DNA of 64,000 nt. Source: Nitrosopumilus sp. Lineage in GTDB: Archaea; Thermoproteota; Nitrososphaeria; Nitrososphaerales; Nitrosopumilaceae. The notes beneath the pieces are model-generated. The model was not told the origin of the DNA. It saw nothing but the letters and a program-made list of their open reading frames with translations, and made no database searches. This document shows, piece after piece, positions 2,121 through 50,639 of the stretch; position 1 is the first letter of the stretch; each line of letters begins with the position of its first letter. The position numbers were made by a program, and so were the translations under genes. Location of the stretch: positions 1,792,001 through 1,856,000 of the forward strand of contig OZ244732.1 in assembly GCA_965219345.1 (NCBI GenBank). The letters are read 5' to 3'.

Positions 2121-2208
2121 AATAATTTCAGAAAAAATGATACCTTAATGATACTTTAATTGAGGTATCACTTTTGGAATAAAGTATAAAGTAGAATCAT
2201 TCTTTGGA

Positions 2209-3519
2209 TTGCTAATGGCAACCGTTTCAGCTCAAAAATCATCAAAATCTCTCCTAGAAATATTTAACATAGTCAGAGAACAGACACTAGAACTAGTCCA
2301 AACATTAGAAAAAGATGATTTTGTGATCCAAACCGCATTCTACACGAGCCCACCAAAGTGGCACATTGGCCATGTAAGCTGGCTCTACGAAGTTGTGATG
2401 AGCAAAACTAATCCAAATTACCAATTTTACTCCAAGGAATTTTCTGAATATCTAAACTCTTACTATCAACAATTTGGTACACCACATGACAAAGGAGAAC
2501 GCGGAATAGCCTCACGGCCAACAGTTGATCAAATTTTTGAATATTTTGAAACAATAAACACTAGAGTTAGGGATTTTATCAATTCTGGAATAGATGAAGA
2601 AGCCAAGTACCTCTTAACAATGGCATTTCATCACGAATGTCAACATCAAGAGCTCTTGACATGTGATCTACAACATCTTTTAACTGATGTGTATAAACCT
2701 GTTAAGAAGATTGCAAGACCTCAAGCTTCTCAAGTTGAACAAAAATCAGTTTCAATCAAAGGTGGATTATATCCCATGGGATATAATGGAACAGACTACT
2801 CTTATGATATAGAACTACCAGAACACAAAGTATTTCTGAATGATTACAAGATTGATGCTTATCCAATTACAAATGGACAGTATCTAAAATTCATTGAAGA
2901 TGGCGGTTATGAAAATTTCAAGTTCTGGTTGTCAGACGGATGGGAAAAAGTCAAACAAAATAATTGGAAGGCACCAATGTATTGGACTAAAGAAGATCAA
3001 TGGTATGTTCAAGATTTTATGGGAAAACGAGAGATAAATCCAAATGAACCAGTTTGTCACGTTAGCTTTTACGAAGCAGCAGCATACTCCAAATGGGCAG
3101 ATAAGAGACTCCCAACAGAAGCTGAATGGGAGAAAGCTTGTTGTTGGAATGAGCAAAAACAAACAAAGACAATATTCCCATGGGGAGATGATGAACCAAA
3201 GGAAGATCAAGCTAATCTGCTAGAATCCCATCTATGGGCACAAACAGAAATTGGTTCATATCCAGATGGAATGAGTTCTGCAGGATGTCAACAGATGATT
3301 GGGGATGTGTGGGAATGGACATCATCAGAATTTACTGGATATCCCGGATTCAAGACAGGATTTGATGAATATAATGACAAATGGTTTACAAACCAAAAAG
3401 TCTTGAGAGGAGGCTCGTTTGGAACTCCAAAGATGTCAATCAGAGGAAGTTACAGAAATTTCTTCAGACTAGATGAGAGATGGTTATTCTCAGGCTTTAG
3501 ATGTGCAGAAGATATCTAA
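2209..3519 (+). CDS. egtB: Ergothioneine biosynthesis sulfoxide synthase EgtB (DinB + FGE-sulfatase domains)
   Basis: SPPKWHIGH, HHECQHQE metal site, RLPTEAEWEKA, GDVWEWT, YRNFF; lies next to egtD. Confidence 0.88.
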   Translation: MLMATVSAQKSSKSLLEIFNIVREQTLELVQTLEKDDFVIQTAFYTSPPKWHIGHVSWLYEVVMSKTNPNYQFYSKEFSEYLNSYYQQFGTPHDKGERGIASRPTVDQIFEYFETINTRVRDFINSGIDEEAKYLLTMAFHHECQHQELLTCDLQHLLTDVYKPVKKIARPQASQVEQKSVSIKGGLYPMGYNGTDYSYDIELPEHKVFLNDYKIDAYPITNGQYLKFIEDGGYENFKFWLSDGWEKVKQNNWKAPMYWTKEDQWYVQDFMGKREINPNEPVCHVSFYEAAAYSKWADKRLPTEAEWEKACCWNEQKQTKTIFPWGDDEPKEDQANLLESHLWAQTEIGSYPDGMSSAGCQQMIGDVWEWTSSEFTGYPGFKTGFDEYNDKWFTNQKVLRGGSFGTPKMSIRGSYRNFFRLDERWLFSGFRCAEDI

Positions 3520-4538
3520 TTTTTTGACGCCAAAGTTAGTGAAAAGTGCTTGTTATCATCTAACCATGTTTGTTTAATTTGAAATCCCGTACTATCAAGC
3601 AGTTCACTAATTTGAGATAATTTGAATTTGTGTGAATGCTCGGTATGGATTAACTCATCTTTTTCTAAATTCAGTAAAAGATTAGATTTTGATACTATTA
3701 CTGATTGATTTACAAGAGATTTTAGATACATCTCAATTCTTTGCTCCTCGTCATTGTAAATTGCATGATGTGAAAAGTTTTTCAAAGAAAAATCAGCATC
3801 AAGTTCGTCATTAATTCTGGAAATAACATTCAGATTAAATTCTGCGGTTACACCTTGTGAGTCATTATATGCAGATTCCAAAATCTGTTTGTCTTTTACT
3901 AAGTCCAATCCAATCAAAAAGAGATCACCAGACTTCATTGTAGAATTTATTTTCTGTAAAAATTTGTAACCATCACTTGGAGAAAAATTACCAAAACTAG
4001 AACCCAAAAAGATTATCAAATTTTTCTTACCATCAAAATTCTTAAGAAATTGTAAACCGCCTTCATAAGTATCAATTAATCCGGTGATACGCAATCCATC
4101 ATGGCCTTTTAGTAATTGTTCAGAGCTTTCTGTGAGAATCTCAGAGATATCTATTGGAAAATACTCTATAGTATCTTGTAATTTTGATAAAATATCAAGA
4201 ATCAGCCTAGTTTTTACAGATGTGCCACTTCCAAGTTCAACTAATCGAAAGCTTTCATCAAGGTAAGAAGGCAATTCATCTTGTAGTTTTTTTAGTATAG
4301 AAATCTCAGTCCTAGTGGGATAATATTCAGGTAAAGAGCAAATTTTTTCAAACAAATCTGAGCCTTTTTTATCATAGAAGAACTTTGGAGGGATAGATTT
4401 AGAATCCTTATTCAAGCTAGAAGATACTTCTTCGGCAAATGTTTTCTCAATTTTTGTAGCATGTGGTTTAAAGTATTGAAGTTTAGGCGATACTACGTAT
4501 TTTTTGTAATCAAGATTTTTTTGAATTGTGTTGCTCAA
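3516..4538 (-). CDS. egtD: L-histidine N-alpha-methyltransferase EgtD
   Basis: PPKFFYDKKGSDLFEKICSLPEYYPTRTE, LVELGSG, FLGSSFGNF, AYNDSQGVTAEFNLN, IHTEHSHKF. Confidence 0.93.
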   Translation of the reverse strand: MSNTIQKNLDYKKYVVSPKLQYFKPHATKIEKTFAEEVSSSLNKDSKSIPPKFFYDKKGSDLFEKICSLPEYYPTRTEISILKKLQDELPSYLDESFRLVELGSGTSVKTRLILDILSKLQDTIEYFPIDISEILTESSEQLLKGHDGLRITGLIDTYEGGLQFLKNFDGKKNLIIFLGSSFGNFSPSDGYKFLQKINSTMKSGDLFLIGLDLVKDKQILESAYNDSQGVTAEFNLNVISRINDELDADFSLKNFSHHAIYNDEEQRIEMYLKSLVNQSVIVSKSNLLLNLEKDELIHTEHSHKFKLSQISELLDSTGFQIKQTWLDDNKHFSLTLASKN

Positions 4539-4634
4539 GTCTTAAGATCGTTTATACTTGACATAAATGCGTTATCCCAAATTTTTACGCACAAATCATA
4601 TTTCTTGATATACTTCTTTGTTCAATAATATCTA

Positions 4635-5600
4635 GTGAATGAAATACTCAAAGTAGAACGTTTGAAAAAACACTTTTCAAAAAAAGGATTGTTTGGTTCA
4701 AAATCCACCACAGTCAGACCAGCAGATGATGTTTCATTTTCTCTTGAAAAAGGTGAAGTTTTTGTTTTAGCTGGAGAATCAGGTTCTGGAAAATCAACTA
4801 TTGCAAAACTGATTCTAAAATCAATTGATGCAGATTCTGGAAAAATTTTTTTTGAAGATCAAGAGATCAATAACGAACAAAAGAATTTAAAAAAAATCAG
4901 AATGAGCTGTCAAATGATTCACCAAGATCCCTATGACTCTATCAATCCAAGAATGAGGATTGAGAATATTGTTTCTGAACCTCTTGAAATACATAACATC
5001 GGAAATAAAGATGAAAGATTCAAAAGGGTGATTGAAGTTTTGCGCGAAGTAAAATTAGAACCTGCTGAGGAAATAGCGAAGAGGTATCCGCACATGTTAT
5101 CCGGAGGGCAAAGACAAAGAGCGGTATTGGCAAGAGCATTGTCACTAAAGCCTAAACTAATCATAGCAGATGAACCAGTTTCAATGTTAGATGTATCAAT
5201 TAGGGCAGAGATGCTTGAGTTAATGCAGGAATTGCAAAAAAAATACAGTATTTCTTTCATCTATATCACTCATGACTTGGCAACAGCGAGATATTTTGGC
5301 CAAAGAATAGGAATTTTGTATCTTGGTAAAATTGTAGAGATGGGACCAATTAACAAAGTTCTGGGTAATCCAAAACATCCATACACACAAGCACTAATTG
5401 ATGCAATTTCAGAGCCAGATCCTGAAAATCTTCACAGAGAAAAGAAAATTAGAATAAATGAACCATCTGATGTTGATGTTTACCAGGGATGCAGATTTAG
5501 AGCAAGATGTCCCTATGTGATTGAAAAATGTAAAGATGAACCTAATTTAGAAAGTGATGATGATGAGCATTATGCTGCATGTTTTGTAAAATTAGACTAG
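4635..5600 (+). CDS. Oligopeptide/dipeptide ABC transporter ATP-binding protein
   Basis: Walker A GESGSGKST, LSGGQRQR signature, ADEPVSMLD, C-terminal GCRFRARCP. Confidence 0.93.
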   Translation: MNEILKVERLKKHFSKKGLFGSKSTTVRPADDVSFSLEKGEVFVLAGESGSGKSTIAKLILKSIDADSGKIFFEDQEINNEQKNLKKIRMSCQMIHQDPYDSINPRMRIENIVSEPLEIHNIGNKDERFKRVIEVLREVKLEPAEEIAKRYPHMLSGGQRQRAVLARALSLKPKLIIADEPVSMLDVSIRAEMLELMQELQKKYSISFIYITHDLATARYFGQRIGILYLGKIVEMGPINKVLGNPKHPYTQALIDAISEPDPENLHREKKIRINEPSDVDVYQGCRFRARCPYVIEKCKDEPNLESDDDEHYAACFVKLD

Positions 5601-8600
5601 GAAGTTCTGACAGATGGCATTCGCTTATCTTTGTAAGTAACAACATGGGAAACGCCATTCTTTGGGAAAACACCATAGATCAGTTTTGCTTTTTGTACAA
5701 CAGAGTCCTTTAGAGACACCAAAATGAATTGGCTTTCTTTAGATCGTTCTTCTAAGATCTTTGCAAGTTTTTCAGAGTTTGGTGCATCAAGGTGTGCATC
5801 AATCTCATCAAACAAGTAAAATGGGGAAGGTTTTAGTTTTTGAAGTGCAAGTACAAACACAATTGCAGCTAATGTCTTTTCACCGCCACTAATTGATGTA
5901 GATTCTCTTTTTGGTTTATTTTGGAATTGAATTAGATAAGAAATTCCAGAATTAAAAATATCATCTTCGTTTTGTAATTCTAACCAAGCATTTCCATTAG
6001 TCATTTTATTAAATATTAAACGAATTTCTTTATCGACAGTATCAAATGCATCCAAGAATGTTTGTCGTTTTTCTTTGTTAACGCCTTCAAGGAATTTTAT
6101 AATTGCATTTTTTTCTTCCTCAAGAGAATTCTTTCTTGTGGACATTGAACGATAACCATAAGAGACTTCAAGATACATTTGAGGTGCCTTTGCGTTTAGT
6201 GAATTAAGTGAAGTTAATTCAGCATTGAGCCCCTGAACAATAGGTTCAACATCAAAGGCATCCATGTCTTTATCAAAGCTAAAAGTAGAAATAATTTGCT
6301 TTAATTTTAATTCGTTTTCTTTCAAATCATCTAAATCATGATTCAATGAATCAGACTGACGTTCCAATGTACTGATTTGTTTTGTTATCTCAGTTTTCTT
6401 ATCATATAAAATTTTTAGTTTGTCATCATATTCTTTGAGTTCCCCAATAGACGAACCAGAAGTGGCAATAAGATTTTGTTCTTTTTCTCTTAATTTTTCA
6501 AGAACTTGTTTTTTTGGTTCTTTTTGTTTTTCTAATTCTTGGATCTTTGTTTCCAATTCTTGGCGTTCTAAATTCAAAGAATGTTCTTCCTCATAAAGTT
6601 GATTAGATTGAGACTTTTCTTGACTAGCTTGAGTTTCTAGTACTGTTAGCTGAGAAGATTTGTCACGAAACTCATTCATTATTGTTGTGAATAGTTTCTC
6701 AACTTCTGCTTTCTTTACGTTAATTCTAGATAACTCATTTGCAATACGATCTTGTTCTCCACCAGCGTAGTTTTTCTCTACAATTGAGATACGTTCATTC
6801 AATGATTCAATGTGAGATTCGTTTGTAATTATTTCTGATTCAACATGTGTATTTCTTGAAGTTAATTCAGAATTTCTTTTTGTTCGCTGTTCTTGTAGAT
6901 TCATTACAGAAACAATGTTTGATTTCAAATTAGAGTAATTCTCATTTGTTGTAGATAGAGACTTTTCTGAAATGGAAAGTTTCTCTTTATGTGATTCAAT
7001 TGAATCTTCTAATTTTTTCAAAGAATGTTTTTTCTGTAGTAGATAATTTTTAATCAAGCTTATGGATTGGAACAAACCATCAATGTCGCTACTCATTGAA
7101 ATTAGTTTTGTAAGTTTTGAAACCTTTGAATTAATATCAATTACAACAGTGCCACCTCTTGCCGCAAAATATTCACCATCTATGGTAACCGCTTTGTATC
7201 CTAATTTTGATACATTATAGGCAGATTCTCGATTTTCTGTAAGTACGACATTTCCAAATAGGAATGTTTTGAGCGTAGAATAGGCGGGATCGCAGGTTAC
7301 ATAATCAGCTAGAACCCCCATGACCCCAGATTCTTTTGGTATAGTTAGCTTGAATTTTGGAATGGCATCAAGTGGTATAATCTTTAGTTTTGGAAGTTTC
7401 TTAACTCTAGCAGCTTCTGCAATTCCAATTAGAGTTGCAAAGTCTTGAACAACAATTGCCTTGATCCAATCAGAGCTCACAGCTAAAACAGAACGTTCGT
7501 ATTGTTTGTCCCATGAAATCATTTCATATACTAAACCTTTAATGCCAAGTTTGTCAGAATCTTCTTTTAATTTTGCAACAGTGTAATCTTCATGCATGAA
7601 TCCTTTCACTGTTTTGATTTTAGATTTGGCAGTAATTGCGGCTTTAGTTGATTTTTCTAATATTGAGTCCCATTCTTCCATGTCATTGTTTAACTTTGAT
7701 TTTTTTGTTTGTAATTTTATAATTTTAGATTTCAATTCAGTAATAGTCACATCATCACGTTTCATCATTGATTCAAACTTAGATTTAGATGCAGATAAAT
7801 TCACCATACCATGTACTAATCCATCAAATTTTCTAGAATTTCTTTTAATTTGATTTTTTAAGTATTCTTTTTCTTGTTGAGCTTTTGAAAGTTTGAGTTT
7901 AGTATCATTTAGTTCACCAGTAAGAATTTGAATTTTGTTATCAATTTCAGATTTTTTAGCTGCAATATCTGACTGTGCTGTTAGAACTTTTTCATATTCA
8001 GAGTCAACAATTACTACATCATTATTGATTTTATTCTTTTTGAGATTTGTCTCTTCTATTGATTCTTTTATTTTTAGGATTTGAGTGTCAACATCGATTA
8101 TAGAATTTTTGATGTCTTCTAGCTCAGTTTTGATTTTTGGACTTCTGTTATCAATTTGTTCTATTCTTTTTGTGGATACTGAGATTATGCTATTATCAGC
8201 TTCATATTGTTCAAATGCTGAGCTTATTTCTGTCTCAAGTAATGCTTTTTCTTGATTGAAGTTATCAGCTTCTTTCATTAACTTGGATTTTTTACTCTCC
8301 AAAACATCAATCTCATCTTTCATGACAGTTTTTTGACCATCTAATTCTGTGATTTCAGTAGTCATAGTGTGCAAAGTGGATTCTTTTGAAGTTTTTTGGC
8401 TTAAAACCACCTTCATTTCATTGGCAGCAGCTAGTGCATTATACCGATTTAGTTCACGCTCTAGAAAATCATGACGTAATTGTTGATTTCTTTCTTCTTC
8501 GAGTTCATCAATTCTTTTTTTGATTTCACCCATTTTTGCAGTTGCAACTTCAAATCTTCTATCAGCATCATCTAGCTGTTTTAGAGCCTCTGTCTTTTTT

Positions 8601-13610: not shown

Positions 13611-13846
13611 CCGCAATCTAAAATTTCTATTTGTGGTTCACAATCGTCATTAAATAAATCAATTTTTTCAACTACAGTTTCACAGAATTCAGGTTCAAGA
13701 GATTTCTCATATGAAGTAATTTCATTTAAAATTATCATATGTTGAGTTCCACAAGAATAACCAATTAAATTAATTGAAATTCCAATAATTGAAATTCCGA
13801 TTATAATTAAAATTAAATTTTTCAAATTAGTCTTTTGTAATGTCAA
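13607..13846 (-). CDS. Small membrane-anchored hypothetical protein with Cys residues
   Basis: N-terminal TM helix, then CG..C..C..CG; start overlaps the end of the Alba ORF. Confidence 0.55.
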
Positions 13847-15128
13847 TTTCCATTATAGAAACATTACGCTGTTTTCCATCTTGAGAAGTAAGGGAGTCAG
13901 ACGAAATTCTTACATCACTAACAAAATAACCAACTGAATCCATTCTTTTAACAATCATTTGAGATACATCAACTGCTTGCGTGATTCTTTTTCCTCTAGC
14001 CTTGATAGTGACAGTGTGTCTTGTTGATAATTGAGTTAAGGTTGCAGAAACATAAGTCATAATTGGTTTAGTACCAACAAAAATTGTATCTCGTTCTTCT
14101 GATTTTTGGGGGGAGTCTGAAGTTTCGCTAGAAGGTATTTCATGTTCTGGTTCAGGTGTTGGTTCTGGTTCAGGTGTTGGTTCTGGTTCTGGTGTTGGTT
14201 CTGGTTCAGGTGTTGGTTCTGGTTCAGGTGTTGGTTCTGGTTCAGGTGTTGGTTCTGGTTCAGGTGTTGGTTCTGGTTCAGGTGTTGGTTCTGGTTCAGG
14301 TGTTGGTTCTGGTTCAGGTGTTGGTTCTGGTTCAGGTGTTGGTTCTGGTTCAGGTGTTGGTTCTGGTTCAGGTGTTGGTTCTGGTTCAGGTGTTGGTTCT
14401 GGTTCAGGTGTTGGTTCTGGTTCTGGTTCAGGTGTTGGTTCTGGTTCAGGTGTTGGTTCTGGTTCTGGTGTTGGTTCTGGTTCAGGTGTTGGTTCTGGTT
14501 CAGGTGTTGGTTCTGGTTCAGGTGTTGGTTCTGGTTCAGGTGTTGGTTCTGGTTCAGGTGTTGGTTCTGGTTCAGGTGTTGGTTCTGGTTCAGGTGTTGG
14601 TTCTGGTTCAGGTGTTGGTTCTGGTTCAGGTGTTGGTTCTGGTTCAGGTGTTGGTTCTGGTTCAGGTGTTGGTTCTGGTTCAGGTGTTGGTTCTGGTTCA
14701 GGTGTTGGTTCTGGTTCAGGTGTTGGTTCTGGTTCAGGTGTTGGTTCTGGTTCTGGTTCAGGTGTTGGTTCTGGTTCAGGTGTTGGTTCTGGTTCAGGTG
14801 TTGGTTCTGGTTCAGGTGTTGGTTCTGGTTCAGGTGTTGGTTCTGGTTCAGGTGTTGGTTCTGGTTCAGGTGTTGGTTCTGGTTCAGGTGTTGGTTCTGG
14901 TTCAGGTGTTGGTTCTGGTTCAGGTGTTGGTTCTGGTTCAGGTGTTGGTTCTGGTTCAGGTGTTGGTTCTGGTTCAGGTGTTGGTTCTGGTTCAGGTGTT
15001 GGTTCTGGTTCAGGTGTTGGTTCTGGTTCAGGTGTTGGTTCTGGTTCAGGTTGTTCTTGAGGTTTAGTTCGAGAATCAAATTCTGATAAAATATCTTCTG
15101 CGTCTTTTGATTTTTTAGAGTCACTCAA
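13827..15128 (-). CDS. Alba-family DNA/RNA-binding protein with long N-terminal (PEPEPT)n extension
   Basis: C-terminal ~90 aa [13 protein letters not shown]...[17 protein letters not shown]...RNVSIMEI is an Alba domain. Confidence 0.88.
14144..15050. repeat. 18-bp tandem repeat (GGTTCTGGTTCAGGTGTT), ~50 units, in-frame PEPEPT
   Basis: Directly visible; a few variant units (CAG>CTG; extra GGTTCT at ~14415 and ~14745). Confidence 0.98.
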
Positions 15129-31128: not shown

Positions 31129-31201
31129 TGGAATATATCAAAAAATAGCATAATCGGCGCGCGGTCATATGAAATGATCGACACTTAAGAATACGTGACA
31201 T

Positions 31202-31330
31202 GGTTCTGGTAAATTCTGGTGATCTGCACCATAAATCATCAGATATAGTTCTTCTCCGAACTGCTCTTTGAAACCCTGGGATAACCAGTACCTAGTAACT
31301 TTCTTGAGATTATCTATCACAACCCTGCTG
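31202..31330 (-). mobile_element. Partial MITE-like element, copy C (inverted; single 36-bp unit)
   Basis: Reverse complement matches the right parts of the copies at 32737-32974 and 34829-35061; begins with TIR GGTTCTGGTAAATTCTGGTGATC. Confidence 0.8.
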
Positions 31331-31495
31331 TGATAACCCCCTTTGAGCCATCACATAAACTTGGCACAAAACTGCAAAGTGCAATTCAGAGAAGATCCAT
31401 ATTTCACTCAGATCACTGGAATTTGCCAGATCCTCCTAAAATTGAACACCCATTTTGATCGCTATTCTTTTATCCAGCTATGTAATCGTAGATTA

Positions 31496-32725
31496 TTGAA
31501 TTTTAGCAATAAACTGACAATTCCAGTCATTGTGGTTGCAGCATTGGTTCTGTTGGGGCTGGCAGCTTTGTCCATGACGAATTCTGGCAACATGACAGAA
31601 TATGCTGCAATTCCCAAAGACATTGTCACGGGCAACAACGACTTTGCAGTAGACTTTTACGGACAGGTATCGGGCAACGATGACAACATCTTCTTCTCAC
31701 CTACAAGCATGTACATAGCATTCTCCATGCTGTACGAGGGAGCGCGTGAAAATACGGCACGGCAGATTCAGCAGGTCTTCGGATTTGATCCCAACGAGGC
31801 CCTGCGTCACAACGCAACTGCGCACATAATGGCATCTGTCAATCAGGACGACCCGCATGTAACGCTTAACCTGGCAAATGCCATCTGGATTGCCAACTGG
31901 TTTGCCCCGTACGACTCATACACTGACATAATACGCAAGACGTATCTTGCCAAGGCCGAACGCGTCGGTTTTCCGGGCGATGGTGTAGATAAGATAAACG
32001 CGTGGGCATCTGAGAAAACGCACGGCAAGATAAAGAGGGTGTTAGCACCTAATGATGTAAGTGGCCTTACTGCGATGGTTCTGGCAAACGCCATATACTT
32101 CAAGGGAACTTGGGTGACGCAGTTCTCGGTAGAGGATACGCGCGAGTCGGACTTTTGGACAAGCAGTAACAGCATCAGGACTGACTTTATGAACATGCGT
32201 GGAACATTCAACTACACCGAAGGCGACGGCGTGCAGATCCTAAAGATGCCCTACAAGGGCGACAGGCTCTCCATGCTGGTGGTTCTTCCCTCGGAGAGGG
32301 ATGGCATAAGGGAGCTACAGAAGACGCTTTCATCAGAACTCATGCAGAAATGGCAACAGGGCCTAACGGAAAAGGAGGTGATAGTGTCGATTCCAAAGTT
32401 TGAGATGAATACACATTATGAGATTGGTGATTCTTTGTGGCATCTTGGAATGACAGATGTCTTTAAAGCAGAAACAGCAGACCTCTCAGGTATTGCAGAC
32501 GTATCAGCGAGAAACTTGTATGTCTCAAAGGCGATTCAGGACGCATACGTAAAGGTAAACGAGGAGGGAACAGAGGCCGCAGCTGTGACTACCATAGTGA
32601 TTCTGGCAGATAGCCTGCCACCCCCACCACCAAGATTTATCGCAGATCATCCATTCATCTTTGTCATACAGGACGATGAGAGCGGCATCATCCTGTTCAT
32701 GGGACGGGTGTCAGACCCGTCATAG
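31496..32725 (+). CDS. Secreted/membrane-anchored serpin, copy 1 (ORF track start 31343; TTG 31496 preferred)
   Basis: NIFFSPTS, NAIYFKGTW, IPKF, hinge EEGTEAAA, FIADHPF, LFMGRV; hydrophobic signal follows 31496; TTTTAT ~25 bp upstream. Confidence 0.95.
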   Translation: MNFSNKLTIPVIVVAALVLLGLAALSMTNSGNMTEYAAIPKDIVTGNNDFAVDFYGQVSGNDDNIFFSPTSMYIAFSMLYEGARENTARQIQQVFGFDPNEALRHNATAHIMASVNQDDPHVTLNLANAIWIANWFAPYDSYTDIIRKTYLAKAERVGFPGDGVDKINAWASEKTHGKIKRVLAPNDVSGLTAMVLANAIYFKGTWVTQFSVEDTRESDFWTSSNSIRTDFMNMRGTFNYTEGDGVQILKMPYKGDRLSMLVVLPSERDGIRELQKTLSSELMQKWQQGLTEKEVIVSIPKFEMNTHYEIGDSLWHLGMTDVFKAETADLSGIADVSARNLYVSKAIQDAYVKVNEEGTEAAAVTTIVILADSLPPPPPRFIADHPFIFVIQDDESGIILFMGRVSDPS

Positions 32726-32736
32726 ACGAGCCCATC

Positions 32737-32974
32737 GGTTCTGGTGAAAAACGGTGATCAGGACCACCAGAATTTAACAGCAGAGTTGTGATGGATAATT
32801 TCGAGAAAGTTACCAGGTACTGGTTATTCCAGGGTTTCAAAGAGCGGTTCGGAGAATAACTATGTCTGATGATTTATGGTGCCAAGGTGCAAGAACAACT
32901 GTGGCAGCAGGACTGTTCGGAGAAGAACTATGTCTGATGATTTATGGTGCAGATCACCAGAATTTATCAGAATC
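32737..32974 (+). mobile_element. MITE-like element, copy A (~238 bp) with 36-bp repeat/32-bp insert/36-bp repeat
   Basis: Ends GGTTCTGGTGAAAAACGGTGATC ... GATCACCAGAATTTATCAGAATC; no credible gene; homologous to copies B and C. Confidence 0.8.
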
Positions 32975-33248
32975 CTGATGCATGTATCGCATACGCAGAA
33001 CCACCGGCAGTGCTACGGTCCTCATTTTCATTGCAGTGGCTTCAATTATGATACTTCTGTACTCAAACGGCAATGCGGTACATGCATATGAAGATACAAG
33101 GATTACCTAGATCCACAAAAATGGCGGCCTGTCAATCACAGACTGAACAGATTGAATGGTACAAAGCCAATGGAGTAGTAGAGAATATGCACCACAATCC
33201 AAATTGTGCATGTACTTACACGAGCCACTAACTAATGGATGGGCCCGC

Positions 33249-34580
33249 CTATGACGGGTCTGACACCCTTCCCATGAACAGGATGATGCCGCTCTCATCG
33301 TCCTGTATGATAAAGATGAATGGATGGTCGGCGATAAATCTTGGTGGTGGGGGTGGCAGACTATCTTCCATAACCACTATGGTAGTCACAGCTGCGGCCT
33401 CTGTTCCCTCCTCGTTTACCTTTACGTATGCGTCCTGAGATGCCTTGTCAACGTACAGATTTCTGTCCGGTTCCACCTTTGCTATGCCAGTCAGGTTGGC
33501 ACCGCGTGGTTTAAAGGCGTCTTCCATACCCATGGCAATGAGTAACTCATTCAGTTTATAATTTACACGGGTCTCAAACTTTGGAACCGAGACTGTGACT
33601 TCCTGGTTTCTCAGGCCTGCCATCCATCGCTCTATCTGCCCTGCTGATAGAGTCTCTTCAAGCTGCCGTATCCCGTCTGCGTCGTGCGGCAGCAGGATCA
33701 GCATCGAGAGTCGGCCCCCGTCGTACGGCATCCTGAGCACCTGGACACCATCCATGCTGGAATAGTCAAACATGTTATGCACGTTCATAAAGTCTGTGCT
33801 TGTACTCTCAGCACCGTTACCGTAAAAGTCAGATTTCTTTGTGTCCTCTGCAGGAAACTGCGTCAGCCACGTTCCCTTGAAGTATATGGCGCTGTTGATC
33901 ACCATTGCGGTGTCCTTGTTGACATCTTTTTTTATGATTACTTTGTCAATCTTGCCCTGAGTGTTCTCTGATGCCCATTTGTTTATCCTCTTTATGCCGT
34001 CATTCTTATCCAGAAAATCTACCTTTTCCGCACTTGCAAGGTATGTGTTGCGTATTATGTCAGTGTATGAGTCGTACGGGGCAAACCAGTCGGCAATCCA
34101 GATGGCATTTGCCAGGTTAAGCGTTGCATGCGGGTCGTCCTGATTGACAGATGCCATTATGTGCGCAGTTGCGTTGTGACGCAGGGCCTCGTTGGGATCA
34201 AATCCGAAGACCTGCTGAATCTGCCGTGCCGTATTTTCACGCGCTCCCTCGTACAGCATGGAGAATGCCATGTACATGCTTGTAGGTGAGAAGAAGATGT
34301 TGTTGTCGTTGTCTGATATCTGCCTGTAAAAGTCTACTGCAAAGTCGTTGTTGCCCGTGACAATGTCTTTGGGAATTGCAGCATGTTCTGTCATGTTGCC
34401 AGAATTTGTCTTGATGTCTGAAACTGAAACAGCGGGGTCGTATAGAGTTGCCGCAGGCTCAGTCTGCGGGCTGTCAGTTGCAGAGTACGGCATGACCACC
34501 ATGGACAAAGCTGCCAGCCCCAACAGAACCAATGCTGCAACCACAATGGCTGGAATTGTCAGTTTATTGCTAAAATTCAA
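33249..34580 (-). CDS. Secreted/membrane-anchored serpin, copy 2 (ORF track start 34733; TTG 34580 preferred)
   Basis: Same serpin motifs as copy 1; extra 30-aa Pro/Ser/Thr-rich linker after the signal; RCL EEGTEAAAVTTIVVMEDS. Confidence 0.95.
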   Translation of the reverse strand: MNFSNKLTIPAIVVAALVLLGLAALSMVVMPYSATDSPQTEPAATLYDPAVSVSDIKTNSGNMTEHAAIPKDIVTGNNDFAVDFYRQISDNDNNIFFSPTSMYMAFSMLYEGARENTARQIQQVFGFDPNEALRHNATAHIMASVNQDDPHATLNLANAIWIADWFAPYDSYTDIIRNTYLASAEKVDFLDKNDGIKRINKWASENTQGKIDKVIIKKDVNKDTAMVINSAIYFKGTWLTQFPAEDTKKSDFYGNGAESTSTDFMNVHNMFDYSSMDGVQVLRMPYDGGRLSMLILLPHDADGIRQLEETLSAGQIERWMAGLRNQEVTVSVPKFETRVNYKLNELLIAMGMEDAFKPRGANLTGIAKVEPDRNLYVDKASQDAYVKVNEEGTEAAAVTTIVVMEDSLPPPPPRFIADHPFIFIIQDDESGIILFMGRVSDPS

Positions 34581-34828
34581 TAATCTACGATTACATAGCC
34601 GGATAAAAGAATAGCGATCAAAATGAGTGTTCAATTTTAGGAGGATCTGGCAAATTCTGGTGATCTGAGTGAAATATGGATCTTCTCTGAATTGCACTTT
34701 GCAGTTTTGTGCCAAGTTTATGTGATGGCTCAAAGGGAGTTATCACAGCAGGCCCTGCTGTTAAATTCTGGTGATCTCGCCCAATCTTCTGCCAAATCCC
34801 AATCCCGTTAGACAGTTGCACAGTCAGG

Positions 34829-35061
34829 GGTTCCGGTAAAAAATGGTGATCAGGACCGCCAGAATTTAACAGCAGGGTTGTGATGGATATTTCGAGAAAG
34901 TTACAGGTACTGGTTATCCCAGGATTTCAAAGAGCGGTTCGGGGAAGAACCATGTCTGATGATTTATTTTCTGAACGTTGGTATGATGCGGTTGCAGTAA
35001 ACTTTGGAGAAGAACCATGTCTGATGATTTATGGTATAAATCACCAGAATTTGCCGGAACC
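34829..35061 (+). mobile_element. MITE-like element, copy B (~233 bp) with repeat/29-bp insert/repeat
   Basis: Ends GGTTCCGGTAAAAAATGGTGATC ... ATCACCAGAATTTGCCGGAACC; body homologous to copy A. Confidence 0.8.
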
Positions 35062-35082
35062 GTATTTATGAATAAGAAATAA

Positions 35083-35410
35083 TTGCCTTCATTATTGAAT
35101 GACAAGCAGATCAGTTTAGAAATTCTACTTGATTGTCATAAGGCATCAAGAAATCAAACAACGGTTCCACGCCAAAAAGAGAATGAAAAATTAAAAGACA
35201 TGGATCAGAAAGATTATCATTTTAACTGTATGTGCCTAAAGGAGCATGATTTATTGCATGGCACTATTACCGCACACGGCCTGGTACCATTTGTGCAATT
35301 AGTGGAACAACCGGAACTGGAATGGATATTGTAGAGTCCTTTATTGATGAGTGCATAGAAAAAACCAAAGATAAGATTACTGGCAAAGCTGTTCATATTC
35401 AGATAAGATT
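35083..35410 (+). pseudogene. Probable frameshifted remnant of a small winged-helix-like protein
   Basis: ORF 35083-35334 continues, after a frame change near 35298, as ISGTTGTGMDIVESFIDECIEK in the 35322 frame; the end is uncertain. Confidence 0.35.
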
Positions 35411-35601
35411 CCCGACTTGCCAATATCCGGACTTCAAACTGAGTTGTGTCAACAAGTTGGGAATTACTATCGTCTCTAATTTCATAAAATGCCTATCTCC
35501 ATACGTGACACCGGACCCCGAATGTAACGGCACTGAAAACCCCAAGATGTACAGCGCAACACTAACCCCAAATGTCCCGGGTTTAGGACGCAAAAACGAC
35601 A

Positions 35602-35838
35602 TCACATGCCATACTTGAATGGCCTGGCCAGCCTGTACCGGCCGTCATTGGACCTTACAAAGTAGACTGGCTTTTTCTGCGGATTGCCCCTTCGGTATCT
35701 GGAAGGATACCTTGATGCGGCACTTGCAGAAATGCGGCACGCCTTTACCAGGTCATTTGGATAAAACGGCTCTTTTAGCTTCCTTGATTTTACCGCCCTG
35801 ACTATCTTGGCATATGTTGGGTGTGGGTTTTTTCTCAT
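35602..35838 (-). CDS. Small basic hypothetical protein (possible DNA-binding)
   Basis: 78-aa Lys/Arg-rich ORF with ATG start at the edge of the serpin island. Confidence 0.55.
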   Translation of the reverse strand: MRKNPHPTYAKIVRAVKSRKLKEPFYPNDLVKACRISASAASRYPSRYRRGNPQKKPVYFVRSNDGRYRLARPFKYGM

Positions 35839-36036
35839 GTCAAAGAATGGGTTTCTGCCTGTTTTTTAGTTTTTGTTTTAGTGTTTTGTTAACTCATCAG
35901 TCTCATCAAAAGTACTGACAGTTAACATGGAGAAGATACGCCCACAAAGTTACCAGTCCCAAATGATCAACAGACTTATAAGTAATGAATTAGAAAATGT
36001 TAAATATTATCATAAAAGGTTTTGGTGAATATAAGA

Positions 36037-45408: not shown

Positions 45409-48400
45409 TTACTCTAGAGTTTTGTATGTGACTTTATAATAGAATCGTGAAACTTGATCATCCTTGATGACTTCAATGTTCCAATTTGCGTCAGGCAAAA
45501 ATTCTGTGGAGGATTCAGGTAGAATGCTGAATTTTTCTAGGCGTACATCTGGACCGCTATATCTAACATTAAGGCTAATTCCATCAACTTCAACAACATC
45601 ATAGATTTGGCCTTGTTTTCTTGTAGATTCTTTAACTAAACAATCAACATCAGGGCCAATAATACATGTACCAGTTGCAGATGATATCTTAAGATTAACA
45701 TTTGATTCATCTGTCCTTGAAGTTGTCAACAAAGAACCAGAAAGAACTCTAGGGGCAATACTTGAATTATCAGCAATTTTTTCCTCAGCGAATATAGAAA
45801 TTATTTTTTCAGAGATTCGGTTTTCTTTTTCAATCACAGTATTCAATTTTAGAGTTTGAGGTTTTTCAATTACATCAAATTGGATTCGCTTTATCTCAAA
45901 TCCAGCATCAACGGTTACTTCATACGACCCAACAGCAGATACAGAATTAGGAATTACAAATTCATGAGTAAATGAAACAGAAGGACTTGGAAGGATTGAA
46001 GTTACAGGACCAGCATGTATTCCACAGCTATAATTAGTACATGTAATCTCAGTGTCTGCTTTTTGAATAATACTTACGTCAAATTTTTCAAGATAGGTTG
46101 GGTTGTTTGGGATTCCACTAATTATTACTGTGTCACCAGTATGATATTCTGATTTATCCGTAAAAACTAAAAGAGTCAATGGATCATCAGGATTAAAAAC
46201 AAGATCATTAGCTACACCAAATGTTGCTTCAGCACTAGTAGTGGTGTAAAGTGCTTTTACAGTATAGGTTCCTTCAGTAAAAATTGTAAGAGGTAATTCA
46301 AAGATACTTGAGAACTCACCACCATGGTTTGGATAAACAGAAGATTCATGAATTTGGGCATATGGGAAAGTACCATCAAGCACTCTGATATGTACTCTTT
46401 CTGGAACAACCAATCCTTGATCACCTTGTTCACGTTGGATAAGATTTCCAATTACTTTTAATTTTTCACCAGCCTTGTACAATGGCTTTTCTGTAGTTAC
46501 AATGAGAGGTGTTTTTGAAAGGGAGTCATTTTCAGGATCTAAAGAAACTTTGAAGAGAAGATCCATATCAAGGGAGTCAGCTGTAATCTTAATTTTGTAA
46601 ATTCCAAAGTTTGATTTTGTTACATCTCTTCCATCATCAGTTTTAATGATTTTTTCAATTAAAGGAGTAGTCCAGGACCATGAGATACGTTGGTCATCAA
46701 TAATAGTGCCAGAATGTATCATAGTTCCATCAGACTTTGTCAACAAAATATCAAGATGTCTCGCACCAGTAGAAGGAAGTAATCCAGTTAGAAGTACAGT
46801 TTCACCAGGACCGTACACTTCCTTATCAAGTGAAACATACTCATTCAAATCAGGATCAAAGACTGTAAAAGTTTTTGTTGCAGTCTCATCCAAATATTGG
46901 GCCTTTACAACATAGTTTCCATCGGCAAAGATATTTTTAGCAACATCGATTTGAACTGAATATTTTCCTGAAGTTTCAGGAATTGCTGTATAGCCAAGGG
47001 CAACATCAAAGCTGCCAGTTGATAACGATTGTTCTTTTGACCAGCCGGAAATTTCTAGAGGGGCACCATCTTCATGATTAATGGAAAGTTTTACAAAAGC
47101 TCCAGTTTCATAATTTGTATTTGAAAATGGATCTTTGATAAATCCACTAATGGCCATTACATCATCAATTTCATAAATTTCTTTATCAGAAAGGATTGTC
47201 AATGGTTCATCAGAAGCAACAAATTCATCAGGGTTAGTAACTACATGAATAATTTTAGTTGCAGAACCAACATTCTTTGAGACACTAATTTTGTAATCAC
47301 CTAATCTAATCTCATCGTTTGGAAGTGTGAAAGAGTAACTAAAAGAGCTATCCCCCATAACTGTTAATTCTGCTTGTATTTTAAATCCAGATGCACTTCC
47401 AGAAGATGAAGTTACAACTGCAGATTGTTTCGTATCTATAATCTCCAAGTTTAATGAATTAACCCAAACTTGGTTAACTCTACCAGTAATTTTTACTTCT
47501 TCGCCTAGACCATAAGCCTCTTTATCAGTCCAAAGTGAAATTGGTACGGATTCTTTAAAGTCCTCGACTACGTCGAAAGTTGTTAAAGCAGCTTTATCAA
47601 AATATTCAGCAACAATCTCATAAGTTCCATAGTTAGGTTTTACAGTTGTAAGGAAAACACTAGTTGTAAATTCGCCGTTAGTTGGAAAGAGAGTTCCGGT
47701 ATAGATTATTTGGTTCTGGGAATCTTTGACAGAAAATTTCATTCCCTGAAATGGAATTATTTCTGTGGCAACACCAGTTATCGAAACTTGTTGTCCTGGA
47801 AGGTATTGAGTTTCATCAGTGGCGATACTAAATGAACCAGCTTCTTTTGTTTCTTGTTCAACTATTTCAGTACCTACTGAGAAATTTGTGTTTGTTGTAG
47901 ATCCAGCATAGTTAACAGATACATCAAAAGTTCCTTCTTCGATTCCAAGAACTTGATGTAAACTAACTGTTGTCTCATAATTTAGATTTAGATCAGGATA
48001 CAGAGATACGATGTCGTAAAAGTTACCGCCAGAGATAGTAACTGTAATTGGTTCAGGTTTAAACTCTGGTTTTACAGGAGTAGATACTTCTGAAACACTT
48101 CCTGCAATAATTGCTACATCACCAAATAGATAAGAAGATTTGTCTGATGAAACTGTTACAGTAATTTCTTTGGATTCTTGCATTTCGATTAGTTTTCCAT
48201 TTGATAGCCCCGCCGTAGATTGCGCAAATTTCCAATCATCAGAACTATCCGAGTCATAACCATCATAGATTCTCTGCCATGATGTAATGTCACTTTGAAT
48301 ATCAGAAATTAAAGGAGTTTTATCAATAACAATTCCATTTTCATCTCTGAGTTCAACAGATTCACCATTATCTGTAAACCAAACTTTTGCATAAGGATAT

Positions 48401-48678
48401 GTTAAGAATTCTCCTGACTTAATTATTGTACCAGAAGAGATGGTCATTGTTTTTTTAAGAACAGTTGTAGATGCAATTTCCCAACCACCTAAATCAATAT
48501 CAGAATCAGTAGGATTGTAAAGTTCAACCCATTCAGATATAGTTGCCGCATCATTTCCAAGGGGGTTAGTGTCTACCTCATTAATTACAACATTTTCAGG
48601 ATTTGCCTGAGCGTATGCAGGAACTATAACTCCTACAAGTAAGAACATAGAAAATACAATTGACAGGTTCCGATTCAT
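45409..48678 (-). CDS. Secreted lamin-tail-domain protein with repeated Ig-like beta modules
   Basis: Signal peptide; VVINEV..EWVELYNPT..DLGGW (LTD); repeated TDKxxYxxGDxVxIxG modules. Confidence 0.85.
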   Translation of the reverse strand: MNRNLSIVFSMFLLVGVIVPAYAQANPENVVINEVDTNPLGNDAATISEWVELYNPTDSDIDLGGWEIASTTVLKKTMTISSGTIIKSGEFLTYPYAKVWFTDNGESVELRDENGIVIDKTPLISDIQSDITSWQRIYDGYDSDSSDDWKFAQSTAGLSNGKLIEMQESKEITVTVSSDKSSYLFGDVAIIAGSVSEVSTPVKPEFKPEPITVTISGGNFYDIVSLYPDLNLNYETTVSLHQVLGIEEGTFDVSVNYAGSTTNTNFSVGTEIVEQETKEAGSFSIATDETQYLPGQQVSITGVATEIIPFQGMKFSVKDSQNQIIYTGTLFPTNGEFTTSVFLTTVKPNYGTYEIVAEYFDKAALTTFDVVEDFKESVPISLWTDKEAYGLGEEVKITGRVNQVWVNSLNLEIIDTKQSAVVTSSSGSASGFKIQAELTVMGDSSFSYSFTLPNDEIRLGDYKISVSKNVGSATKIIHVVTNPDEFVASDEPLTILSDKEIYEIDDVMAISGFIKDPFSNTNYETGAFVKLSINHEDGAPLEISGWSKEQSLSTGSFDVALGYTAIPETSGKYSVQIDVAKNIFADGNYVVKAQYLDETATKTFTVFDPDLNEYVSLDKEVYGPGETVLLTGLLPSTGARHLDILLTKSDGTMIHSGTIIDDQRISWSWTTPLIEKIIKTDDGRDVTKSNFGIYKIKITADSLDMDLLFKVSLDPENDSLSKTPLIVTTEKPLYKAGEKLKVIGNLIQREQGDQGLVVPERVHIRVLDGTFPYAQIHESSVYPNHGGEFSSIFELPLTIFTEGTYTVKALYTTTSAEATFGVANDLVFNPDDPLTLLVFTDKSEYHTGDTVIISGIPNNPTYLEKFDVSIIQKADTEITCTNYSCGIHAGPVTSILPSPSVSFTHEFVIPNSVSAVGSYEVTVDAGFEIKRIQFDVIEKPQTLKLNTVIEKENRISEKIISIFAEEKIADNSSIAPRVLSGSLLTTSRTDESNVNLKISSATGTCIIGPDVDCLVKESTRKQGQIYDVVEVDGISLNVRYSGPDVRLEKFSILPESSTEFLPDANWNIEVIKDDQVSRFYYKVTYKTLE

Positions 48679-49465: not shown

Positions 49466-50509
49466 TGTAGTATATGAAAAGTCGGTCCGCTAGTCATCTG
49501 TGTCCCTCTCCATCCATTGCGGGTCGCTTTTCCTGATCGTATCGGTAGCCGTCTTGTCCGAGAACGCCATAAGTGGCGTCTGGTAGTTGTCTATGTCAAG
49601 GGAGAAGTGCAGCCTCTCCCCGTTGTAGTATTCCATGTACGCAGACAGGCTCTCGTAGTGCCACAGCTCGTCCTCGACTGTCCTGTGGAACCGCTCCAGT
49701 TTCCCGTTGGTCTGCGGGTGGTGCGGCCTGGAGTTTATCAGCTCGATTCCGCGGTCCAACAGCTCTGCCTCAAAGGCAGTCGGCTTCCACGATTTCGCGG
49801 GCGGCACCTTGCGGCGGCCTCCCCGGCCCACAAAGCACGAGCCATTGTCAGAGAGTATGGTCGCAGGCGTGCCAAAGCACCCTATTGCCTTCCTGAGAAC
49901 AGCCACGGCGTTCTCAGACGTGGCCTGTGTGAATACCTGCGAGGCCACTATGCACCTTGAGGCGTCGTCCAGGTATGTGACCAGCTGCAGGCCCCTGAAC
50001 CTGGGCTCCTTCATCTCGTGCCAGTCGACGTGCCACATGGCGTTGGAATACCTGCGCTCATAGCGTACCCATTTCCGCTTCCTGGATTTTGCAGCAGAGT
50101 GCACCACTGAACCGTTCTTGCTCAATATCCGGTATACTGTCTGGTAGCTTATATCATGGCTCTTCCTGAGGCTCCTAGCCGTGCGCACCACCCCGACTGG
50201 CCTTCTCCCGTGCTCCTCCGTCACCAGCCGCATCTGGGCCGCAGTCGCAAAGGCGCGGGGCCTGCCCATCCTTGCGCGCGTGGTTCCGGTCCCGAGGAAC
50301 CTTGCCCACAGCCTCCTCACGTGCCTTGCAGTGATGCCGAGGTCAGCTGCCACCTTGGACGGTGCCGCCCCGTTTTTGCGCTGCCTTACTAGGTAGCGCC
50401 TGGATTCATCCGTAAGTCTCTTTACCATGGGCTTTCGTGATCGGTACAGCCTAAAATAGTCAGATACCGTCCTCTTGATCCTGCGCGGACCTACTTTCCG
50501 TACAATTGA
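49466..50509 (-). mobile_element. IS481-family insertion sequence (1044 bp) with 16-bp flanking direct repeats
   Basis: Imperfect 25-bp TIRs (TGTAGTATATGAAAAGTCGGTCCGC / GCGGACCTACTTTCCGTACAATTGA); AAACAAAAAAAATCAT at 49450-49465 and 50510-50525; high GC. Confidence 0.88.
49490..50428 (-). CDS. IS481-family DDE transposase (ATG 50428 preferred over 50515)
   Basis: N-terminal HTH; WHVDW, LDDASR, LSDNGSCF, HPQTNGKLERFHRT. Confidence 0.92.
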   Translation of the reverse strand: MVKRLTDESRRYLVRQRKNGAAPSKVAADLGITARHVRRLWARFLGTGTTRARMGRPRAFATAAQMRLVTEEHGRRPVGVVRTARSLRKSHDISYQTVYRILSKNGSVVHSAAKSRKRKWVRYERRYSNAMWHVDWHEMKEPRFRGLQLVTYLDDASRCIVASQVFTQATSENAVAVLRKAIGCFGTPATILSDNGSCFVGRGGRRKVPPAKSWKPTAFEAELLDRGIELINSRPHHPQTNGKLERFHRTVEDELWHYESLSAYMEYYNGERLHFSLDIDNYQTPLMAFSDKTATDTIRKSDPQWMERDTDD

Positions 50510-50639
50510 AAACAAAAAAAATCATCGAAAAAATATTGTATTTGATAAAATGATCCTAATTCACAGGTAAATGCGTCCAATAGTATGGGATGTCACTATT
50601 ACCAATTTTGGTCTGACCTGATATCAAGAAGACATGAAC

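Follow-up and report, generated by a model that had tools for sequence, protein, structure and literature searches.

Expanded and secreted serpins have been reported in sponge-associated ammonia oxidisers, and self- or host-protease targets were proposed for them, in the serpin passages of two studies (PMC6790972, PMC7848895). In our study, two serpin genes, S1 and S2, were found in a stretch of 64,000 nucleotides from Nitrosopumilus sp. (assembly GCA_965219345.1, contig OZ244732.1, positions 1,792,001 to 1,856,000), which is called the window here, and a third paralog, S3, was found elsewhere in the same genome. The predicted bait residue (P1) of the reactive-centre loop was acidic in all three. 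The serpins described in these passages for Candidatus (Ca.) Nitrosospongia ianthellae and Cenarchaeum symbiosum belong to the same family and lineage; an extracellular location is predicted for them, each genome has several copies, and S08A subtilases are often their neighbours. For these organisms copy numbers and gene context are given, and the serpins of the present genome differ from them in not lying beside a subtilase. No analysis of the loop or of P1 was found in the serpin passages of the two papers, and the supplementary serpin tree of PMC6790972 may bear on this; a search of titles and the starts of abstracts returned nothing on P1 of these archaeal serpins. The acidic-P1 loop is a new variant within a gene family that has already been reported, and our family-wide survey placed serpins in many more genomes than those passages list.

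The closest natural solved structure was chloropin of Chlorobium limicola (8gxv, E 8e-70). It is a demonstrated inhibitor whose hinge is that of our serpins, as is its distance of 17 residues to P1-Ser. It differs in its P1 Arg, which was mapped by mass spectrometry, and inhibits thrombin and KLK7 according to the passages available (PMC10090351); it is without the poly-Pro P' side, and its 375-residue chain aligns from its residue 7 with no anchor seen. Tk-serpin and Pnserpin are archaeal inhibitory serpins acting on endogenous subtilisin-like proteases, as the relevant passage states (PMC8233489), but they come from hyperthermophiles of another archaeal phylum. SERPINB9 (PI-9) and the tick protein Iripin-4 (7zbf) contain P1 Glu and are aimed at the acid-specific serine protease granzyme B, which Iripin-4 inhibits weakly; both are animal proteins, and a poly-Pro P' side is not described for them in the corresponding passages (PMC11222584, PMC10167670). 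Iripin-4 was among the Protein Data Bank (PDB) sequence matches of our serpins (E 8.8e-52). The poxvirus proteins CrmA and Serp-2 share P1 Asp, an aliphatic P4 and a small P2 with the serpins studied here, but their sequence relationship to S1 and S2 ends at the serpin fold. CrmA and Serp-2 are intracellular viral proteins without a signal peptide and act as cross-class caspase inhibitors with a shorter loop; SERPINB9 is also intracellular.

Serpin genes, export signal and reactive-centre loop

The features of the three genes are given below (aa, amino acids; ORF, open reading frame).

31343-32725, + strand: long ORF of S1, 460 aa, convergent with S2
31496..32725, + strand: S1 from its likely start, 409 aa from TTG 31496, with signal/anchor, linker absent, loop ILAD|S
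31514..31573, + strand: S1 hydrophobic signal/anchor (LTIPVIVVAALVLLGLAALS), best 15-aa window with mean Kyte-Doolittle value 3.14
32561..32614, + strand: S1 reactive-centre loop, P17 Glu to P1' Ser; P17 codon 32561-32563, P1 Asp GAT 32609-32611
32618-32632, + strand: S1 poly-Pro P' side, 3' of the reactive-centre loop
33249-34733, - strand: long ORF of S2, 494 aa, convergent with S1
33249..34580, - strand: S2 from its likely start, 443 aa from TTG 34580, with signal/anchor, then 30-aa Ser/Thr/Pro-rich linker, loop VMED|S
33360..33413, - strand: S2 reactive-centre loop, P17 Glu to P1' Ser; P1 Asp 33363-33365 (ATC on the + strand), P17 codon ending at 33413
Contig C1, 1483891-1484991 (serpin match): third paralog S3, ORF at 1222-2607 of the fetched region L001, loop VIAE|S

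The genome was 1.91 Mb in 2 contigs, was 99.5% complete and contained exactly three serpin matches. An archaeal AmoA was encoded in the same genome, and the closest named relatives of the serpins were found in Nitrosopumilus and Cenarchaeum metagenome-assembled genomes (MAGs), at 52-59% identity; the label of archaeal ammonia oxidiser is therefore sound. In a profile search S1 and S2 matched PF00079 (MEROPS I4 family) at model positions 2-370 of 370, with E 7.5e-113 and 377.9 bits for S1 and E 1.1e-116 and 390.5 bits for S2 against a cut-off of 27. The AlphaFold2 model of S1, built with 45 aligned sequences, had a mean pLDDT of 86.1 and a pTM of 0.83, and low confidence was confined to residues 1-35, which cover anchor and linker, and to residues 362-375, which correspond to P11 to P3'. 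The top Foldseek matches of this model were the inhibitory serpins antithrombin, PAI-2, SERPINB1 and chloropin, with query-normalised TM scores of 0.78-0.84. By profile, S1 and S2 are intact full-length serpins, and the predicted model of S1 has the native serpin fold with an exposed reactive-centre loop.

An N-terminal hydrophobic signal/anchor was carried by S1, S2 and S3. When the segment was scored as an N-terminal 15-residue window with a mean Kyte-Doolittle value of at least 1.8, a comparable one was found in 115 of 120 homologs. The full-length profile matches, the AmoA-bearing genome and the hydrophobic N-termini thus bear out the initial annotation, which had described two secreted archaeal serpins with signal/anchor helices. 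The region upstream of the start carried a 2-nt deletion in S3 and in metagenome contigs, so the part of the long ORF upstream of the hydrophobic segment is probably noncoding, and the start of S1 was placed after 31410 because the indel breaks the upstream frame. The most plausible start, judged from the N-termini of the homologs, is TTG 31496 (34580 in S2). Translation from it opens with M-NFSNK, and a hydrophobic segment of 20 residues comes next, in agreement with the homologs, which contain an M-[K/R]-rich start, then a hydrophobic stretch. A-L-S|M would fit the -3/-1 rule for a predicted cleavage of this segment. Since the signal/anchor is present, the serpin domain should face outward.

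The loops were EEGTEAAAVTTIV-ILAD-S in S1 and EEGTEAAAVTTIV-VMED-S in S2. Both genes contained the hinge E-E-G-T-E-A-A-A-V-T-T-I-V, and the P1' Ser was followed by the region L-P-P-P-P-P-R-F. Counting 17 residues from the hinge Glu gave P1 Asp in S1, Asp in S2 and Glu in S3, and on the sequence ruler both Asp codons lay exactly where they had been placed originally, at GAT 32609-32611 and at 33363-33365. The inhibitory hinge consensus (P17 Glu, P15 Gly, P14 Thr/Ser and small P12-P9) was present in S1 and S2. The P17 E, P15 G, P14 T, P13 E, P12 A and P10 A residues were invariant in 123 of 123 clade members, and the P16, P11 and P9 positions varied among them. The small-residue hinges of inhibitory type that had been claimed for both copies were thus confirmed by the shared E-E-G-T-E-A-A-A-V and by its invariant core in the relatives.

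Acidic P1 in the archaeal family

Among the 120 nearest database homologs, P1 was Glu in 38, Thr in 27, Asp in 11, Val in 9, Ser in 7 and another residue in 28. The set of 123 nearest-homolog rows contained acidic P1 in 52 (Glu 39, Asp 13). On a FastTree phylogeny of these rows, calculated with the loop masked, acidic P1 was scattered over most subclades; the well-supported branches require at least 16 changes between acidic and other P1, and the tree as a whole at least 25.

In the survey of family genomes with a completeness of at least 80%, serpins were found in 80 of 348 genomes, which represented 16 of the 25 genera. The loop survey covered 120 of about 179 matches (the near-full-length ones listed outside g1, the genus of the window genome, and 60 within g1) together with 30 loci found earlier; 11 loci were without a readable hinge, and identical loops within one genome were counted once. 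Acidic P1 was found in 42 of the resulting 137 loops from 69 genomes (Glu 29, Asp 13), and these loops were spread over 29 genomes and 10 of the 16 genera. In other prokaryotic serpins, the same position was acidic in 1/58, Lys in 6/58 and Thr in 26/58. The initial annotation had called P1 Asp rare in serpins; this holds for the other prokaryotic serpins, but within its own family acidic P1 is common.

The 52 acidic loops of the 123 rows mostly contained Val/Ile at P5 (42/52) and at P4 (36/52), Ser at P1' (46/52) and Pro at P3' (29/52). The nine commonest P3 residues covered 49 of the 52 loops, and Glu was not one of them. In 16 of the 123 loops the acidic residue was found at P1' instead. Acidic P1 is strongly enriched in this archaeal family, in which acidic P1-Ser-polyPro is the most frequent type of loop. 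S1 and S2 are not exceptional in this respect, and the usual acidic residue is Glu, with a Glu:Asp ratio of about 2:1.

Because acidic P1-Ser-polyPro is the commonest loop of the clade, an extracellular serine protease accepting Glu/Asp is the most likely target. We give about an even chance to the reading that S1, S2 and S3 are exported suicide inhibitors of such a protease. The signal/anchor would place the serpin domain outside the membrane, and in S2 and S3 the domain would sit on a 30-residue Ser/Thr/Pro-rich tether. The target protease would cut the exposed loop between the acidic P1 (Asp in S1 and S2, Glu in S3) and the Ser that precedes the rigid poly-proline stretch. The cleaved loop would then insert into sheet A and the enzyme would be trapped, as in the ordinary serpin suicide-substrate mechanism. 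The target may be a glutamyl-endopeptidase-like or granzyme-B-like serine protease or an acid-tolerant subtilase, and its source may be the host, neighbouring microbes or the archaeal cells.

Predicted scissile bond and possible protease targets

That the D/E-S bond is the scissile bond, and that S1, S2 and S3 inhibit, is what we infer from the sequences, and several observations count against the proposal of acid-directed inhibitors. The serpins of this clade are known from sequence and predicted structure alone. The own genome contains four S8 ORFs and an HtrA-like protease; no Glu/Asp-specific protease was identified in it, and no serpin lay within 60 kb of these five genes. The three readable own S8 proteases contained Asp, Ser and Asp after the oxyanion Asn, residues that do not suggest an acidic P1 preference. 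The HMMER gap placement against 8gxv set our Ala on the P1 Arg of chloropin, so the register may be one residue off. The nominal P2 varied more than P1 (entropy 3.57 vs 3.06 bits over 123 loops), and the true P1 could be the 16th residue, because the nominal P2 contains the P1-like residues R, F, Y, M and I. Some bacterial serpins, miropin among them, are reportedly cleaved at several loop bonds.

The last three observations lead to a serious rival, in which the D/E-S bond is not the scissile one and the true P1 is the hypervariable position next to it (Ala, Glu and Ala in the paralogs), or several bonds are cut. In that case S1 to S3 would broadly inhibit elastase-, chymotrypsin- or subtilisin-like enzymes, with a structural role for the conserved acidic-Ser-polyPro motif. 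The nominal P2 and P3 were the most variable positions, P3 reaching 3.70 bits. Arg was found at the nominal P2 in 7 of the 52 acidic-P1 loops and Phe/Tyr in 10 of 27 P1-Thr loops; the loops with the acidic residue at P1' and the HMMER gap point the same way. Against this, in the alignment to 8gxv the P1 Arg of chloropin stands directly before Ser at the 17th place counted from the hinge Glu, so that the hinge-to-P1 distance of 17 counted here equals that of a mapped P1; the serpin trapping mechanism depends on this distance. In the HMMER alignment to conserpin (6ee5), which carries a grafted antitrypsin loop, our Asp-Ser also fell on the Met-Ser (P1-P1') of that loop. Sequence alignment to these solved serpins supported the register through conserpin and through the chloropin residue count, and departed from it by one residue in the HMMER gap against 8gxv. 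The Lys found at this position in related non-archaeal serpins, and the constancy of the acidic P1 in the three paralogs while P2 switches between Ala and Glu, also argue for the nominal register. We consider a shifted or multiple cleavage site rather improbable, and the broad specificity that would go with it has, in our estimate, a similarly small chance.

The other serious rival concerns the archaeon's own secreted S8 subtilases, which the serpins may regulate or from which they may shield the cell surface; the acidic P1 would be tolerated or preferred by these enzymes. Co-localisation of serpins and S8 genes was reported in the serpin passages of PMC6790972 and was reproduced here. In 10 related genomes, 13 of 45 serpin genes were found at most 6 kb from an S8 catalytic-domain match. 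These comprised 7 of 16 serpins with acidic P1 (one duplicate locus), 5 of 25 with another P1 and 1 of 4 with unread P1, and adjacency did not depend significantly on whether P1 was acidic (Fisher p = 0.16). A 1222-aa S8 with a proprotein-convertase P-domain was flanked in a named MAG by a pair of Asp-P1 serpins, VGGD|S and VMRD|S. In the present genome, however, the nearest S8 was about 60 kb away for S3 and about 400 kb away for S1 and S2, and the serpin-adjacent type of S8 had no close ortholog, the best match being 36% over the catalytic core. Some serpin-adjacent S8 proteases contained Arg directly after the oxyanion Asn, which by column count is position 156 of subtilisin BPN', a position that we take to have a role in charge specificity. 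The residue was read in 11 serpin-adjacent S8 genes, 2 further regions being without a readable motif; it was R, S, Y, Q, E or F and did not vary consistently with the P1 of the neighbouring serpin. Own subtilases as the targets seem unlikely to us on balance; the explanation stays alive for the family, less so for this genome.

Charge complementarity between the substrate-binding S1 rim of the subtilases and the serpin P1 was considered as a line of evidence and was dropped, given the mixed residues across the 11 S8 genes and the D, S and D of the own S8 proteases. In a related genome, serpin - S8 - serpin modules were repeated several times (L038 453-7155, with the subtilase at 2070-5738 between its serpins; G236:C2 5069-14949 and 2055226-2061520). 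Such modules occurred near both ends of a contig in inverted order, and their S8 genes encoded 1200-1800 aa with a P-domain and Ig-like repeats.

The initial annotation had proposed that S1 and S2 are inhibitors of caspase type, that is, cross-class inhibitors of host Asp-specific caspases which, like poxvirus CrmA, would block host apoptosis or immunity. The canonical P1 Asp of two copies, the aliphatic P4 and the small P1' agree with this, and ILAD resembles the LVAD which that annotation quoted for CrmA. The genome also encodes LivH/M-type permeases, symbiont-typical according to the passages of PMC6790972, and serpins are reported as enriched in sponge symbionts in those of PMC7848895. The permeases are a weak hint of a host-associated lifestyle, and the wide occurrence of serpins (80/348 genomes) was weighed against inferring symbiont status. 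Caspases are cytosolic, whereas the signal/anchor places the serpin outside the archaeal cell, and no route into the host cytosol was evident, although delivery systems were not searched for systematically. Glu exceeded Asp at P1 in the clade (29 vs 13) and was the P1 of S3, whereas caspases strongly prefer Asp. Glu was not one of the nine residues found most often at P3 in the 52 acidic-P1 loops. The loop was of the standard 17-residue length, whereas that of CrmA is shorter than standard. In the retrieved text of PMC6790972 the words 'caspase' and 'reactive' occurred 0 times, and caspases and the reactive loop were not mentioned in the serpin passages of PMC7848895 either. The caspase proposal was not upheld by the export of the proteins, by the roughly twofold excess of Glu over Asp or by the uncommon P3 Glu; it is the least likely of the readings considered, and we regard it as very improbable.

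Paralog divergence and genomic setting

Two blocks of the S1 region were distinguished by comparison with the paralogs.

31324..31945: 5' block common to the paralogs, mostly 93-100% identical to S2, with about 170 nt ahead of the start included
31946..32533: divergent middle part of S1, with 48-68% nucleotide identity to S2 and S3, proportion of synonymous differences (pS) 0.69

S1 and S2 showed 71% identity, and S2 contained an insertion of 30 residues right after the N-terminal hydrophobic segment. At 32534-32713 the two were 90-97% identical. The synonymous divergence between S1 and S2 reached 0.69 in the middle, compared with 0.11-0.12 in the end blocks. Together with the mosaic identity, this fits two old paralog lineages with recently homogenised ends, and the tree, which grouped S1 with a different relative than S2 and S3, agrees with two lineages. 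To judge from these sequences, the ends were probably homogenised by gene conversion.

Over the long ORF, S2 and S3 differed by 20 substitutions and one 2-nt indel, with 19 of the substitutions in the real coding region. Three of the 19, each of them nonsynonymous, fell in the adjoining codons for P3, P2 and P1. The proportion of nonsynonymous differences (pN) between S2 and S3 was 0.26 in P5-P1 and 0.011 gene-wide. The number of hits expected for a pre-specified region was 0.13, which gives a Poisson probability of about 3e-4, on small numbers. The P4-P2 residues differed between the copies, as had been noted at the outset for ILAD and VMED, with P2 being Ala in S1, Glu in S2 and Ala in S3. 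The surrounding 200 bp had been described as near-identical, with diversification focused on the specificity residues. Both statements hold locally, at 32534-32713 and in P5-P1, but they missed the divergent middle of 590 bp upstream, at only 48-68% identity.

A wider reading, which we hold to be doubtful, is that the acidic-P1/Ser/poly-Pro loop marks a lineage-specific class of surface serpins directed against Glu/Asp-specific host or microbial proteases and diversified in an arms race by cassette duplication, end conversion and P4-P1 selection. Serpin cassettes on GC-rich, repeat-flanked islands would duplicate, gene conversion would homogenise their ends, and selection would re-diversify only P4-P1. 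Insect serpins have alternative reactive-loop exons, of which this would be a prokaryotic counterpart.

Short-read metagenome contigs from four sequencing runs broke at the paralog boundaries and at the serpin hinge (window 32577-32589). Among 11 sequencing data sets listed for the sequence, none was of RNA. One metagenome contig continued from the hinge as TTINMFQE-SMP, a co-occurring variant with Glu at the canonical P1.

S1 and S2 were found between CofD/CofC and a TFB gene, in an otherwise ordinary housekeeping context. The elements of the setting are listed below (GC, guanine plus cytosine content).

31200..35900: GC-rich island with both serpins and two small unassigned ORFs; GC mostly 44-51%, 36-39% near 34.8-35.4 kb, genome 36.0%
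32726..33248: spacer between the convergent S1 and S2, in which copies of the dispersed repeat listed next are found
31202-31331, 32737-32977 and 34829-35061: dispersed repeat of about 130-150 nt, which bounds and interrupts the island
Contig C1 near 907k, 914k, 919k, 951k, 1483k and 1502k: further genome copies of the dispersed repeat
L001 2947-4023, - strand: IS110-family transposase (PF01548, PF02371), directly downstream of S3
49490-50515 of the window: rve-type integrase

The dispersed repeat flanked every serpin copy, S3 having the same flanking repeats, and occurred at about ten other sites in the genome in a partly palindromic arrangement. By appearance alone it is MITE-like (miniature inverted-repeat transposable element). 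In a second low-GC genome of the genus, the serpins had a GC of 0.49-0.51 and their flanks of 0.32-0.35. The GC contrast between serpins and flanks, the repeats and the transposase suggest that the serpins are mobile or were laterally acquired from higher-GC relatives. A small ORF without a Pfam match recurred at the serpin loci (window 35322-35618, + strand; L001 325-660, - strand), and its copy near S3 contained a fourfold tandem PECNGTEN expansion.

Elsewhere in the window, 45409-48678 (- strand) encoded a protein of 1089 aa with an MG2 domain of alpha-2-macroglobulin type and a lamin-tail domain, which may be another protease-related surface protein. Adjacent genes at 2209-4538 encoded FGE-sulfatase/DinB_2 domains and a histidine-specific methyltransferase, a pair that we presume to be EgtB/EgtD of ergothioneine synthesis. 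An ORF of 433 aa at 13827-15128 (- strand) contained a long acidic repetitive region, then an Alba domain; ORFs on both strands overlapped it, which is typical of a low-complexity repeat.

Serpins are one of the few families repeatedly singled out as sponge-life adaptations of ammonia-oxidising archaea, and their targets are still sought. In about a third of the family loops the predicted bait residue is Glu/Asp and precedes Ser and poly-proline, which gives a testable hypothesis of specificity. The acidic loops supply a short list of candidate enzymes to try, so that the question of the target becomes directly testable. If the proposed acid specificity is true, these would be the first archaeal serpins with it, and the host or its microbiome would be expected to have a Glu/Asp-specific protease activity that has so far escaped notice. 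If the own subtilases are the targets, the loops would document a self-protection module for extracellular protein digestion.

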